Below are positions 1 through 56,338 of a stretch of DNA of 56,338 nucleotides, piece by piece. The stretch is taken from positions 218,586-274,923 of the forward strand of contig JAZJXT010000001.1 in the NCBI GenBank assembly GCA_040390725.1, given 5' to 3'. Each line of letters starts with the position of its first letter. The first letter of the stretch is position 1. The stretch comes from Patescibacteria group bacterium. GTDB lineage: Bacteria; Patescibacteriota; Minisyncoccia; Phycocordibacterales; UBA9973. The position numbers were made by a program, and so were the translations under genes. The notes beneath the pieces were generated by a model that worked only from the letters and a program-made list of their open reading frames with translations, did not search any database and was not told the DNA's origin.

Positions 1-60
1 AGTTGGTAGAGCGCTCCCCTGAAGAGGGAGATGTCACCAGTTCAACTCTGGTCCTTGGCA
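1..60 (+). tRNA. tRNA-Phe (anticodon GAA), 5' end truncated by window edge
   Basis: Anticodon stem CTCCC/GGGAG with loop CTGAAGA; T arm ACCAG-TTCAACT-CTGGT; acceptor 3' strand CCTTGGC plus discriminator A; no encoded CCA. Confidence 0.85.
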
Positions 61-21933: not shown

Positions 21934-21974
21934 CTTGTCCCGCATTGGTGTGGATAAAAAATAAAAAATAAAAG

Positions 21975-23778: not shown

Positions 23779-23846
23779 AGTAAAGTATTAAACAAAATAG
23801 AATATTTAGCAAGAGTTAAACCTAAAAGTTATCCACAGGTGGCATT

Positions 23847-32891: not shown

Positions 32892-33111
32892 AGGTATATT
32901 CTACCAATATTTAAAACAATAAAATAGAGCTTGACTTTTATCACTATTCATGATAAGCTTTTTAGTGAAAAAAGATCCTTGAAAAATATCGATTTTCCTT
33001 TGTTATTTACCAAGTTCGTTACGGCTTAAGCCTTAATTATTTTGGTTAATAACAATAGGAGTATCCCCGAAAATCCTTTAAAGAGTAGGGGTAATCAATA
33101 ATAGATAAACA

Positions 33112-33548: not shown

Positions 33549-34028
33549 ATGAAAAAATCAGTTTTATTTTTTCTCTTAGTAATTCTTATGGGATTCAGAG
33601 AAGTTTACGCCCAAGACACAACAATCGTTAGAGGTACAGTTGTGTATGATACACATTTTAAGGAGGGAGATAAAAATTTTCACTTAAAGTATGTGGCACA
33701 CCATAAGGGTGAGTTTATGTTTATGTGTACTACCTTTGACAAGCCTTATGACAACCTTATGGTTTTAAATGAGCTCTGGTATGAAAATCAGAAGCTTGAT
33801 TTAACTTATCGTGATCAGGGGAAATTACCACTTTCTATTTTTAAGATCACTACTGAAACAGTCGGTGATTTAAAATCTGTTTTGGTGGTAGAGGGCCATC
33901 CGCGTCTTTTGTCTATATTTAAAAATGCAGATGAATATCCTCAAACAGAGGTTTTTAAGATGTATTTTTTACCAGTCAAAAAAGATGGAGTAGAAACATT
34001 TCGGCAAATAGAGCCTGGAGAAAAGTAA
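33549..34028 (+). CDS. Small secreted protein (159 aa, signal peptide)
   Basis: N-terminus MKKSVLFFLLVILMGFREVYAQ. Followed by a strong terminator. Confidence 0.5.
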   Translation: MKKSVLFFLLVILMGFREVYAQDTTIVRGTVVYDTHFKEGDKNFHLKYVAHHKGEFMFMCTTFDKPYDNLMVLNELWYENQKLDLTYRDQGKLPLSIFKITTETVGDLKSVLVVEGHPRLLSIFKNADEYPQTEVFKMYFLPVKKDGVETFRQIEPGEK

Positions 34029-40020: not shown

Positions 40021-40968
40021 ATGTCTAAAAAAGTATTATTGTCAGGCATTCAATCGTCAGGAAAAGCCCATATTGGCAACTATTTCGGCGCGATGAAGCA
40101 ATTCGTCGACTTGTCAAAAGATTACGAGTGTTTTATCTTTATTGCCGATTATCATGCATTGCATTCCTTGCAAAATCCTAAGGAAATGAAGGCTAACATT
40201 GTGGGTTTGCTTTTAGACTATCTTGCTGTTGGCCTCGATTCTCCAAATGTGACTTTATTTAAACAATCTGATATTTCCGAGCACACAGAGCTTTGTTGGA
40301 TTTTTGATACTATCACTACTATGCCGTATTTGATGCGTGCGCATGCTTTCAAAGATGCTGAAGCAAAAAATAAAGAAATAGTTGTAGGTACTTTTAATTA
40401 TCCAATGTTGCAAGCCGCAGATATTTTACTCTATAGTCCGGATGTTGTGCCTGTCGGGCAAGATCAAAAGCAACACATAGAAATAGCTCGTGATACTGCA
40501 GAAAAGTTTAATCATATTTACGGGGAAACCTTTAAAGTTCCGGAGCCTATGATACTTGCGGATGTAGCAGTAGTGCCTGGTACTGATGGACGTAAAATGT
40601 CGAAAAGTTACGGCAACACTATTCCTCTTTTTGCTGAGTACGAAGAAATTAAAAAATGTGTGATGGGTATCGTTACTGATTCGGGTGAGGGGATACCAAA
40701 AAATGTTTATGAAATACACAAACTCGTACGTGCGGAAAGTGAATTAAAAACAATTTACGCAGAAAATTCCGGCAAATATAAAATCTTGAAAGAAATTTTA
40801 ATAGAAGATTTGGAAAAATTCATAGCGCCTCTTCGCGAGAAAAGGAAAGAATATGAAAAAGATATTCCAAAAGCTCTTGAAATATTAAAAAAAGGTGGAG
40901 AAAAAGCTAAAAAAATCGCCAGCGCAAAAATGGACGAAGTTCGTGAGAGGCTGGGCGTGAAGCTTTAG
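40021..40968 (+). CDS. trpS: Tryptophanyl-tRNA synthetase
   Basis: 315 aa. SGIQSSGKAHIGNY (HIGH), VPVGQDQKQH, and KMSKS. Confidence 0.95.
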   Translation: MSKKVLLSGIQSSGKAHIGNYFGAMKQFVDLSKDYECFIFIADYHALHSLQNPKEMKANIVGLLLDYLAVGLDSPNVTLFKQSDISEHTELCWIFDTITTMPYLMRAHAFKDAEAKNKEIVVGTFNYPMLQAADILLYSPDVVPVGQDQKQHIEIARDTAEKFNHIYGETFKVPEPMILADVAVVPGTDGRKMSKSYGNTIPLFAEYEEIKKCVMGIVTDSGEGIPKNVYEIHKLVRAESELKTIYAENSGKYKILKEILIEDLEKFIAPLREKRKEYEKDIPKALEILKKGGEKAKKIASAKMDEVRERLGVKL

Positions 40969-40978
40969 AAGTAAATTT

Positions 40979-41272
40979 ATGAAAAATAAAACAAAAATAG
41001 CAGAATATAAAAAAGAAGTTATTGATGTGATGGCTAAAATTTCTCGCGATAAAAATCTGCTTGCGGATTTTATGAAAGATATTTTGACCCCGCACGAATT
41101 CGATAATATCGGCGTGCGTTGGCAAATAGTAAAGAAACTCGCCAAAGGCGAGACGCACGAATCCATAGCAGGGGATTTGGGTTTAGGCATAGCCACAGTC
41201 ACTCGAGGTTCGCGTGAAATGCGCGACAAAGAAGGCGGTTTTCAAAAAACTCTTAAATCATTGGATATTTAA
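40979..41272 (+). CDS. TrpR/YerC/YecD-family helix-turn-helix protein
   Basis: 97 aa. LTPHEFDNIGVRWQIVKKLAKGETHESIAGDLGLGIATVTRGSREM matches the Trp-repressor-related YerC pattern. Confidence 0.7.
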   Translation: MKNKTKIAEYKKEVIDVMAKISRDKNLLADFMKDILTPHEFDNIGVRWQIVKKLAKGETHESIAGDLGLGIATVTRGSREMRDKEGGFQKTLKSLDI

Positions 41273-41278
41273 AGCCTG

Positions 41279-41310
41279 CCCCGTATGAAGCCAAAGGCTT
41301 TCGTGCGGGG
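41279..41310 (+). terminator. Long GC-clamped hairpin CCCCGTATGAAGCC-AAA-GGCTTTCGTGCGGGG after the TrpR-like gene (no U tract)
   Basis: Starts 7 nt after the stop codon. Its last G is also the first base of the GTTATCCACAGGT motif. Confidence 0.4.
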
Positions 41311-41347
41311 TTATCCACAGGTTGGTTGAAATCATGAAAAAAGATAC

Positions 41348-41376
41348 TTGCATTTATTTTAACACTATGCTAGCAT
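41348..41376 (+). promoter_or_regulatory. Candidate promoter: -35 TTGCAT, 17-nt spacer, -10 TAGCAT
   Basis: Same -35 hexamer as the mraZ promoter. The predicted transcription start coincides with the ATG at 41383, which would give a leaderless mRNA. Confidence 0.3.
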
Positions 41377-41382
41377 ACTAGT

Positions 41383-41469
41383 ATGATGATATATAGGAAA
41401 TTACAAATAAATAAAACAAGCACTAAAGCTTGGTGGCAGGCTAAAAAACTTTTTAGCCGGTCTTTGTGA
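41383..41469 (+). CDS. Candidate leader peptide MMIYRKLQINKTSTKAWWQAKKLFSRSL (28 codons, tandem Trp codons)
   Basis: I translated this from the sequence; it is too short for the ORF track. TGG TGG at 41431-41436, stop TGA at 41467-41469. Confidence 0.3.
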   Translation: MMIYRKLQINKTSTKAWWQAKKLFSRSL

Positions 41470-41502
41470 TTTTGTAATATGTTTGAATATTAATCTCAAC
41501 AT

Positions 41503-41531
41503 CCGGCTCGAAAGTCGGTTTTCTTGTTTTT
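41503..41531 (+). terminator. Intrinsic terminator CCGGCT-CGAA-AGTCGG + TTTTCTTGTTTTT (candidate attenuator terminator)
   Basis: 6-bp stem with one G-U pair and a tetraloop, followed by a U-rich tract. Lies 57 nt upstream of ORF 41588. Confidence 0.5.
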
Positions 41532-41587
41532 GTAAGAAAAAATGCTCGTTGAAAATTTAATATCAATTAACTAAAATTTCAGAAAAA

Positions 41588-41776
41588 ATGAAAAAGTCTA
41601 AAATTATTCTCATTGTCCTTGTTGTGCTTGTCGTAGTGGCAAGTATTTACGAATCTATTGATCCGTTTATGTCAGAATTTAAATTTTTGATTCTGCAGAA
41701 TGTGTTTATCTTGTTTGTGGAAATTTATCTTTTTCACAAAATTTGGTTTAAGCTCAAAGAATTTCTTAATCAATAA
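41588..41776 (+). CDS. Small membrane protein (62 aa, two hydrophobic helices)
   Basis: MKKSKIILIVLVVLVVVASIY... plus a second hydrophobic stretch. Confidence 0.4.
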   Translation: MKKSKIILIVLVVLVVVASIYESIDPFMSEFKFLILQNVFILFVEIYLFHKIWFKLKEFLNQ

Positions 41777-41838
41777 AAATCCAGTTTTAAAATCCCTGCC
41801 TAAGGACAGGAAAACTCACACTCAGTGGGTCTGGAATA

Positions 41839-42483
41839 ATGCTTATGCAAAAGTTAAACTTTAACAAAATTGGAAATGTAGCATTTCCTAAATTTACGGG
41901 GGTAAACATTTATATGATGCCCTTTATTATGGGAAATGCAGAATCTATTCCAGAGGAGTATAAACAATATCTCCCCATGATAGATGCGTGTAAAATATCT
42001 ACAAAGCTCATCGGGCAAGTAGGATATTTAACTATCACCGAAACAGTTGTTAAGCTTGGCGAAACTCAAAGAAAGCCTGGCATCCACACTGATAGCGGTT
42101 ATGGTTTGATTTACATGGCTAATAATTTGCCAAATTCATGCAGGGTTTGGGATGAAGAAATTTATAGCACTGACCCGTATGGAGACTGTGAAGAATATAG
42201 GGATTCATTGGGTAAGGGTATAACTATTGAGCCAAATATTTTATATATGCTTAATGAAAACTGCCCGCACGAATCTCTGCCTGTTGAAAAGGAAGGAGAA
42301 AGACAATTTTTTCGTTTAGTAACAGGTCCGTTGCAGGCTTGGTGGGAAGGTGATTCAACCCCAAATAGGTTGAAAATAGTTCCACCATCTACTTGTGAAA
42401 TAAAGCGAGGTCATAAGTTTAAGAGCATGGAGGAAGAAGCTGAATCTCTCAGTAGATTTACCAGTAGTTACCCCTGTTGGTAA
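41839..42483 (+). CDS. Hypothetical protein with a possible Fe(II)/2-oxoglutarate dioxygenase-like HxD...H...R pattern
   Basis: 214 aa. RKPGIHTDSG (HxD), a distal CPHESLP, and an Arg 12 residues after that His (ERQFFRL). Motif-level inference only. Confidence 0.45.
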   Translation: MLMQKLNFNKIGNVAFPKFTGVNIYMMPFIMGNAESIPEEYKQYLPMIDACKISTKLIGQVGYLTITETVVKLGETQRKPGIHTDSGYGLIYMANNLPNSCRVWDEEIYSTDPYGDCEEYRDSLGKGITIEPNILYMLNENCPHESLPVEKEGERQFFRLVTGPLQAWWEGDSTPNRLKIVPPSTCEIKRGHKFKSMEEEAESLSRFTSSYPCW

Positions 42484-56286: not shown

Positions 56287-56338
56287 GAGCGTGTAGTTCA
56301 GTGGTAGAACGCTGTCCTGATAAGACAGAGGTCGATGG
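56287..56338 (+). tRNA. tRNA-Ile (anticodon GAU), 3' end truncated by window edge
   Basis: Acceptor GAGCGTG, D arm GTTC-AGTGGTA-GAAC, anticodon stem CTGTC/GACAG with loop CTGATAA. Confidence 0.8.

Follow-up and report, generated by a model that had tools for sequence, protein, structure and literature searches.

A predicted tryptophan-codon-sensing transcription attenuator behind a TrpR-like gene in Patescibacteria

Bacteria of the candidate phyla radiation (CPR), or Patescibacteria, are mostly uncultured, have reduced genomes, and almost nothing is known of their gene regulation. Here, we present a computational analysis of a 56,338-nucleotide (nt) stretch of DNA from a Patescibacteria group bacterium (contig JAZJXT010000001.1; the whole stretch that was analysed is hereafter called the window), with emphasis on the 315-nt intergenic gap (41273-41587) that lies 3' of trpS and of a gene for a TrpR-like protein. 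An original prediction, made from the sequence of the window, had placed a trpL-type attenuator in this gap, that is, a leader open reading frame (ORF) with tandem tryptophan (Trp) codons followed by mutually exclusive RNA hairpins.

The gap behind trpS and the TrpR-like gene

The trpS product shares no more than 80% identity with its counterparts in metagenome-assembled genomes of Candidatus Nomurabacteria/Paceibacteria. The neighbouring 97-amino-acid (aa) protein matches the Trp repressor family PF01371 (E 6.9e-16, 58.5 bits against a cut-off of 27) and is nearer to TrpR (TIGR01321, 44.6 bits) than to YerC/YecD (24.3 bits), although the TIGR01321 score is under its cut-off of 67.25 and thus does not establish orthology to Escherichia coli TrpR. 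Past the gap, a 62-aa membrane ORF (orf62) is followed by a 214-aa ORF (orf214), prs and aspS. The elements of the locus, including those seen in the minimum free energy (MFE) fold, are the following.

40021-40968: trpS, upstream of the TrpR-like gene
40979-41272, + strand: gene for a 97-aa TrpR-family repressor (PF01371, Trp_repressor)
41311-41319, + strand: TTATCCACA box, about 29 nt 5' of the -35 element
41348-41376, + strand: predicted promoter, with -35 TTGCAT at 41348-53, a 17-nt spacer and -10 TAGCAT at 41371-76
41370-41385, + strand: operator-like palindrome CTAGCATACTAGTATG, overlapping the -10 element and the leader start codon
41383-41469, + strand: leader peptide ORF of 28 codons, MMIYRKLQINKTSTKAWWQAKKLFSRSL, with ATG at 41383 and TGA at 41467-69
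41431-41436, + strand: tandem Trp codons TGG TGG, the predicted sensor
41439-41458, + strand: hairpin 1:2 of the MFE fold, formed by segment 1 GGCTAAAAA (41439-47) and segment 2 TTTTTAGCC(GG) (41450-58(60))
41448-41515, + strand: antiterminator, in which 41448-41460 pairs with 41503-41515 around a middle hairpin at 41464-41499
41503-41531, + strand: intrinsic terminator from the terminator scan, CCGGCT cgaa AGTCGG (41513-18), then TTTTCTTGTTTTT
41278-41311, + strand: GC-rich hairpin just 3' of the stop codon of the TrpR-like gene, from the MFE fold of 41260-41590

The promoter, leader ORF, Trp codons, segments, terminator and stop codon that the original prediction had placed here all check against the sequence, and the pairing of segment 2 with CCGGCTCGAAA (41503-13) holds at 10 of 11 positions as claimed, with nine Watson-Crick pairs, one G-U pair and one mismatch. 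A terminator scan of the window picks up both hairpins, and the region folds more stably than shuffled sequence (z -3.5 for 41383-41535 and z -6.5 for 41260-41590). Trp codons make up 1.26% of the codons in the long ORFs of the window, so that only about 0.004 in-frame pairs of Trp codons would be expected per 28 codons.

Conservation and folding of the leader

Relatives of the locus were collected in two ways: 80 genome loci were fetched via trpS, eight of which carry the TrpR-like gene after trpS, and a metagenome scan with an alignment of five TrpR-like sequences yielded 47 further loci (individual loci are cited below by L numbers). The eight genome loci already had, downstream of this gene, the parts seen in the window in matching order. 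The TrpR-like gene adjoins the attenuator module in about 55 loci, and the module recurs behind TrpR-family genes in over 40 Nomurabacteria/Paceibacteria loci. It was seen after TrpR-like genes in about 30 distinct loci, and the covariance model R1 described below finds 41 copies, plus L131 and L132. The shared order begins with a TT[AT]TCCACA box, a promoter, an ACTAGT-centred palindrome, the ATG and a short ORF with TGGTGG, and continues with a hairpin right after the Trp codons, the stop codon, a second conserved hairpin and a GC-rich terminator whose tail is TTTTTTGTTCTTT.

The leader ORF itself is conserved as a reading frame. The spacing between the ATG of ACTAGTATG and the Trp codons takes 17 different values, from 30 to 90 nt, and preserves the frame in all 34 distinct loci that carry this sequence. 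The leader frame is free of stop codons in 34 of 34, with the remaining two frames open in 0 and 2 of them. The ORF ranges from 23 to 51 codons, and its length and N-terminal sequence vary freely while the C-terminus of the peptide (..WWGAxTLAFALFC) is fairly conserved. Where the loop between segments 1 and 2 has gained 9 or 18 nt, the usual stop codon (in GUUGAUUUC) still falls in the leader frame. TGGTGG is present in 31 of the 41 R1 matches, and most of the others have a single TGG left at the sensor position or next to it; one R1 copy is without a leader ORF in the frame of the Trp codons. Single-Trp sensors (TGGCGG, TGGCAG, TGGTAC, TTGTGG, TGGCAA) occur in L087, L088, L096, L100, L105, L117, L123, L109, L131 and L128, and such copies may be less sensitive or decaying attenuators.

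These frame data bear on an alternative in which TGGTGG is kept not as codons but as one strand of an RNA helix with CCAYYA, within a translation-independent switch that works in the manner of a TRAP site, T-box or riboswitch. The helix can close a three-way junction in most members, where it is 88% paired against 46-57% for slid controls, and the free fold of L132 uses it. However, it shows no compensatory change, 465 of 500 shuffles do as well, the variants TGGCGG and TGGCAG are uncompensated, and the window and L005 are without a CCAYYA partner. Nor can such a switch explain the 34 of 34 in-frame ATGs with one open frame or the in-frame loop insertions, and there is no T-box or other Rfam match, all of which makes this explanation very improbable.

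The stop codon usually comes 39 nt past the first TGG, and this position bears on another alternative. In most members the first Trp is thereby 12 residues before the last residue, and in TnaC, which carries an Asp/Pro pattern, the W12-P24 spacing resembles this Trp-to-end spacing. A TnaC-like nascent-peptide sensor would have free Trp stall the ribosome at the leader end and would be induced by high Trp. We give this the slimmest of chances: the Trp-to-stop spacing varies (36, 39, 48, 51, 57 nt and more) with in-frame insertions, no Asp/Pro pattern is conserved, in place of a Rho site there is an intrinsic terminator whose antiterminator covaries, and the position of the leader before trp biosynthesis genes in relatives (see below) fits induction by starvation.

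At the RNA level, covariation supports the terminator and the 1:2 hairpin as well as the 2:3 antiterminator that competes with them. The model R1 was built from 29 leaders and comprises the 1:2 hairpin, the middle hairpin and the terminator. It matches the window at 41428-41530 (47.4 bits, E about 1e-6) and finds 41 copies at E<1e-5, 13 of them outside the seed, including second and third copies in L117 and L109. In the R1 alignment, the terminated structure is 89.9% paired with changes on both sides in 17 of 24 pairs, and 0 of 500 shuffles are as good. Helix 1 (1:2) is 87% paired with both-side changes in 5 of 9 pairs, and in helix 3 (the terminator) both sides have changed in 7 of 7 pairs. 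Terminator stems in relatives measure 5-11 bp, which takes the weight from the original caveat that a 6-bp stem is short. The 2:3 antiterminator played no part in making the alignment, and its helix is 89.8% paired, compared with 26-57% for controls with the partner slid by 1-3 columns; its pair 53-146 occurs as CG 18 times, UA 15 times and UG seven times, and is never unpaired. Further, RNAalifold on the raw MAFFT alignment chose the antiterminator with the nested middle hairpin unaided.

In Rfam, no match to the element was found at gathering threshold (whole window), at E<=10 (41200-41900) or at E<=1 (four consensus-like members), and neither Trp_leader RF00513 nor T-box was matched in these scans. 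Two R1 matches elsewhere in the window, at 33880 and 34047, were considered as a second copy of the module and rejected because they lie within a coding ORF and its terminator; they reach only about 18 bits.

Switching between the two structures was followed in constrained ViennaRNA folds, and the results given here are thermodynamic modelling only. In the window, the free leader adopts hairpin 1:2 and the terminator (-37.4 kcal/mol). With 41416-41448 masked, as by a ribosome at either Trp codon, 41448-60 pairs with 41503-15 around the hairpin at 41464-99 and the terminator is gone; with 41452-81 masked, as by a ribosome at the stop codon, the terminator is restored. The original prediction had proposed constrained folding as a check, and the window switches between antiterminator and terminator as it claimed. 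Across 38 distinct members, the stall mask leads to the antiterminator in 33 and the stop-codon mask to the terminator in 34.

The promoter upstream of the leader has the consensus TTGCTT/TTGACT-17-TAGCAT across loci, and in 39 distinct upstream regions TAGCAT is present in 29, TTG at -35 in 35 and the 17-nt spacer in 37. The -10 element that had been called imperfect is thus the family consensus. The -10 precedes the ATG by 7 nt and ACTAGT precedes it by exactly 6 nt, with no Shine-Dalgarno sequence; a start so close to the -10 suggests that the leader mRNA is probably leaderless or nearly so, and together with the 34 of 34 in-frame ATGs it largely settles the earlier caveat about the absent Shine-Dalgarno sequence. 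In L004 and L107 the same ACTAGTATG comes after a coding gene, with no obvious promoter.

The palindrome CTAGCATACTAGTATG holds two CTAG cores 8 bp apart and a 12-nt perfect palindrome, CATACTAGTATG. It is the sole CTAG-N4-CTAG in the 56-kb window, in which CTAG is under-represented (87 sites against about 188 expected), and ACTAGT is kept at the operator position in nearly all loci, as ATACTAGTAT or GTACTAGTAC. By its sequence, the palindrome is likely a TrpR-type operator, and the 97-aa TrpR-like protein its likely trans-acting partner.

The TTATCCACA box further upstream matches the DnaA-box consensus exactly, and most loci have TT[AT]TCCACA 5' of the promoter. The loci, 890 kb together, contain 58 exact TTATCCACA sites, 45 of which have an ACTAGT operator within 110 nt downstream. 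The window has four sites (41311-41319, 23829-23837, 1491-1499 and, on the - strand, 21949-21957) against 0.5 expected; apart from the site at the Trp promoter, another copy in the window, AGTTATCCACAGGTGG, lies 5' of the mraZ-like gene. Directly 5' of the box, a second ACTAGT palindrome (ATCAGCNYACTAGTRNGCTAGT), which could be an auxiliary operator, is present in L084, L089, L100, L103, L105 and L117. The window is without it and has the GC-rich hairpin at 41278-41311 at that place instead. This hairpin lacks a clear T-tract, a comparable one is found in L092/L096, and it may possibly mark the end of the trpS-trpR transcript.

Based on these data, we conclude that the element is very probably a trpL-type transcription attenuator, which senses Trp codons through the translating ribosome and is combined with a repressor and operator of the TrpR type. 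The trpL-type interpretation of the original prediction, which had named a comparison with related loci as a further check, is borne out by more than 40 homologous loci in which the ORF, the tandem TGG codons, their reading frame and the three helices are conserved with compensatory changes. The element is a new sequence family and a variant of a well-known mechanism rather than a new principle, and its distinct points are the leaderless-looking start within the operator, the stop codon 3' of segment 2, the nested middle hairpin and the non-biosynthetic targets in the window.

In the mechanism that we propose, transcription would start about 7 nt after TAGCAT, at or next to the A of the ATG at 41383, and a Trp-loaded TrpR-like protein would block initiation at the CTAG-N4-CTAG palindrome. 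A ribosome coupled to transcription would translate the 28-codon leader. When charged tRNA-Trp is scarce, it would stall at TGG TGG (41431-36) with its footprint over segment 1 (41439-47), thereby leaving segment 2 (41448-60) free to pair with 41503-15 around the nested middle hairpin; with the terminator blocked, RNA polymerase would continue into orf62, a three-stem RNA motif and orf214. When Trp-tRNA is plentiful, the ribosome would reach the TGA at 41467 and cover segment 2, and CCGGCT:AGTCGG with the T-tract would terminate transcription near 41531. Without translation, hairpin 1:2 would form first, reinforced in the window by a helix between the 5' and 3' arms of the leader, and transcription would terminate. 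Hairpin 1:2 would thus be the anti-antiterminator, and possibly also a pause hairpin.

Several points weigh against this reading. With the stall mask, the MFE structure keeps the terminator in 5 of the 38 members, and the divergent L132, L131 and L053 do not switch by MFE. When the window RNA is folded from the Trp codons on, the antiterminator is the MFE structure even with no ribosome, so default termination relies on the co-transcriptional order of folding and on the 5'-arm helix. This helix joins the start-proximal part of the leader ORF to the region of the stop codon over a long range; it forms in the MFE fold of the window, but was rejected as a feature of the family (mean z -0.3, z<-2 in 3 of 24). 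The pairing of UGGUGG with CCAYYA 5' of the terminator in most members means that the invariance of the Trp codons could be partly structural. To our knowledge, transcription-translation coupling is unstudied in CPR bacteria. Finally, the genes downstream in the window are not trp genes, and orf62 could be driven independently of the attenuator by a promoter-like match, TTGAAA-17-TAAAAT (10/12), at 41549-41577 on the + strand between the terminator and orf62, which ends 10 nt before the orf62 ATG; such matches are no commoner here than in shuffled sequence.

Genes behind the leader

In relatives, the same leader stands directly 5' of trp biosynthesis genes, namely those for TrpE and TrpG (L103), TrpB and TrpA (L101), and TrpB (L124, L102), and in L021 it precedes a TrpD-TrpC fusion and an ORF called TrpF-like on the basis of its N-terminal sequence alone. 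The presence of the leader family upstream of trp genes ties the element to tryptophan. Further genes behind the leader encode Asp/Glu-type racemases, a PF08915 protein and many proteins of 50-90 aa, several of them with CxxC pairs.

Genes of the racemase and threonyl-tRNA synthetase (ThrRS)-editing types lie behind Trp leaders or TrpR-type operators in L117 (1081-2384), L109 (2175-3531), L088 (5707-6282) and L091 (2984-3424), and just past the operator in L004/L008. Some of them have a leader copy of their own, with three copies in L109 and two in L117. The assignments to PF01177 (Asp/Glu-type racemase) and to PF08915 (archaeal ThrRS editing-domain fold, related to D-aminoacyl-tRNA deacylases) are confirmed for L117, and the other racemases are named by sequence similarity. 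Together, these genes hint at a handling of D- and L-Trp.

Proteins of 60-90 aa with two CxxC pairs are the first to follow the leader in L112, L125, L101, L081, L088 and L096. They resemble the anti-TRAP protein of Bacillus, a small zinc-binding protein induced when tRNA-Trp is uncharged. The small proteins behind the leader gave sub-threshold zinc-ribbon matches only and no match to the anti-TRAP family.

The marked heterogeneity of these genes (small zinc-ribbon proteins, membrane mini-proteins, racemase, orf214) would suit another explanation, by which the leader makes a free-standing micropeptide, a terminated trans-acting RNA of about 150 nt, or both, and the hairpins merely end its transcript with no control over the genes downstream. 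The fairly conserved C-terminus of the peptide and the promoter-like site between the terminator and orf62 fit this as well, and trans functions are documented for attenuator-derived RNAs and leader peptides (PMC6614838, PMC7298713). However, a plain terminator has no need of the covarying helix between segment 2 and the terminator 5' arm, the module lies directly 5' of trp biosynthesis operons, and the peptide varies freely in length and N-terminal sequence. We therefore regard this explanation as improbable; a trans role could exist besides cis attenuation, not instead of it.

Behind the attenuator, the window holds the following features.

41588-41776, + strand: orf62, 62 aa, a predicted two-helix membrane protein and the first downstream ORF in the ORF list
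41779-41839, + strand: unclassified three-stem RNA motif, directly 5' of the orf214 start codon
41839-42483, + strand: orf214, 214 aa, presumably the main regulated gene

The 214-aa ORF, taken for an orphan in the original prediction, has 111 homologues, in which H83, H144 and R155 are invariant. Its AlphaFold2 model is a double-stranded beta-helix with a predicted local distance difference test score of 91.8, and the top Foldseek matches in the PDB are all Fe(II)/2-oxoglutarate oxygenases, with a probability of 1.0 and template-modelling scores of just 0.36-0.44. From this structural model, orf214 probably encodes an Fe(II)/2-oxoglutarate oxygenase. Sequence searches found no relatives in Pfam, NCBIfam or the PDB, and an exact-sequence look-up of the recorded gene call of the window was also empty; judging by the conserved N-terminus, the start of this call (P0001, 189 aa) is 25 codons too far 3'.

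The family to which orf214 belongs is about 200 aa long with an HxD/E...H...R pattern, and is found in CPR bacteria, phage-like contigs, and protist, cnidarian and chytrid records. Some members are fused to ubiquitin, and the phage-like contigs are tightly packed, with sheath, GIY-YIG/NUMOD3 and ParB neighbours. The three closest homologues (P0002-P0004) are on other CPR contigs, and each has this operator and a leader of the R1 type in front of it. A TrpR-like gene is called next to the orf214 homologue in L128-L131, where the gene order differs, and L132 begins with the 3' end of an apparent TrpR-like gene, as judged from the translated sequence. The R1 leaders before these homologues score 57.6 bits in L132, with two Trp codons, and 40.7 bits in L131 and 29.7 bits in L128-130, with a single one. 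The repeated occurrence of orf214 homologues behind the leader and beside a TrpR-like gene makes orf214 a recurrent member of the predicted regulon. Near the distant homologues in phage-like contexts no TrpR gene is called, in contigs that were not scanned for the leader.

The protein encoded by orf62 has no Pfam or NCBIfam match. Weakly similar small hydrophobic ORFs are found behind the attenuator in L046 and, in L128-L131, behind the orf214 homologues.

The three-stem motif consists of P1 (CCAG/CUGG), P2 (CCUG..CAGG with the loop CCUAAGGA) and a variable P3, with conserved GGAAAA and AUCUGGAAUA. The 3' strand of P1 (CUGG) overlaps the sole GGA where a ribosome-binding site would be. The motif is also found directly after the attenuator terminator in L053 (5158-5216) and L082/L083 (3561-3621), ends 0-10 nt 5' of the start codon, and precedes mutually unrelated ORFs (214, 140 and 87 aa). 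In the three sequences, 89.7% of cells pair, double changes occur in four pairs, and the MFE fold is a three-way junction. The motif had no match in Rfam and no more copies among the 132 loci, and 12 pattern matches in viral contigs were all dismissed as chance. We regard it as a candidate riboswitch or protein-binding element on the grounds of its sequence and position.

It is possible, though we hold this only tentatively, that the module marks a Trp-starvation regulon of Patescibacteria, which has spread from trp biosynthesis to non-biosynthetic genes and has in the three-stem RNA a second sensor in series. If so, the regulon would include orf214 with its small membrane partner, the racemase, the D-aminoacyl-tRNA-deacylase/ThrRS-editing-like protein and the zinc-ribbon mini-proteins, and these genes would serve Trp-scavenging, Trp-sparing or quality-control functions in host-dependent, ultra-small bacteria. 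A gene behind the module is probably needed when Trp is short, and orf214 and several of the mini-proteins are thus testable candidates for Trp salvage or sparing.

A deeply conserved leader-peptide attenuator would imply that CPR bacteria couple transcription with translation and measure tRNA charging like model bacteria. The model R1 is ready for use in metagenome annotation, and the element itself represents a compact, portable predicted Trp-responsive switch, for which testing in vitro is possible without culturing the organism.

Elsewhere in the window, an Rfam DUF805b RNA match at 33056-33091 on the + strand (36.0 bits, gathering score 35.6) lies about 20 nt 5' of a 121-aa ORF with a signal-peptide-like N-terminus, and both ends of the window (1-60 and 56287-56338) cut tRNA genes, as seen from partial Rfam tRNA matches.

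Comparison with known systems

A search of limited scope found no literature linking CPR, Patescibacteria or Parcubacteria to leader-peptide attenuation. The Rfam amino-acid leader families (Trp_leader RF00513 and relatives) belong to the same functional class of cis-regulatory RNA, and since none of them matches, the element would be a new family.

A close parallel in layout is the trp region of E. coli, where TrpR and TrpL exert dual control of the trp operon (summarised in PMC7755916). Both have a TrpR-family repressor and, over the -10 element, a CTAG-N4-CTAG operator, a putative one in the window and ACTAGTTAACTAGT in E. coli; the E. coli sequence was checked against 5,422 E. coli genomes, and a literature search for a citable description of the operator gave nothing useful. 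As in trpL, a short leader ORF with tandem Trp codons precedes three overlapping helices (1:2, 2:3 and 3:4) and a T-tract. There is, in contrast, no sequence similarity and no RF00513 match. E. coli trpL has a 5' untranslated region and a Shine-Dalgarno sequence, whereas the leader described here is apparently leaderless with its ATG inside the operator palindrome, and its stop codon lies about 36-39 nt past the first Trp codon and 3' of segment 2, compared with three codons after the Trp pair in trpL. Additionally, a conserved extra hairpin is nested in the antiterminator, the repressor gene is adjacent, and the targets in the window are not trp genes.

In mycobacteria, leaderless polycysteine short ORFs act as Cys-responsive attenuators, according to the abstract of the report (10.1101/834739). 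There, too, the start codon opens a leaderless mRNA and clustered codons for a single amino acid tune the downstream operon; the amino acid and the phylum are different, and the abstract describes neither an intrinsic terminator/antiterminator pair nor a repressor operator over the start codon.

In Sinorhizobium meliloti, the trpL attenuator gives rise to rnTrpL and peTrpL, both active in trans (PMC6614838, PMC7298713), which is relevant because many leader copies described here precede non-trp genes, although sequence, lineage and promoter/operator context differ.

The trpRBA operon of Chlamydia trachomatis likewise has trpR followed by an intergenic second promoter and Trp-responsive control, in a host-dependent bacterium with a reduced genome (PMC7755916). 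Trans attenuation is exerted in C. trachomatis via YtgR, the synthesis of which depends on a WWW motif, and the annotated TrpL is atypical and probably non-functional (PMC7755916), whereas in the loci described here a canonical cis-acting leader with tandem Trp codons is conserved.

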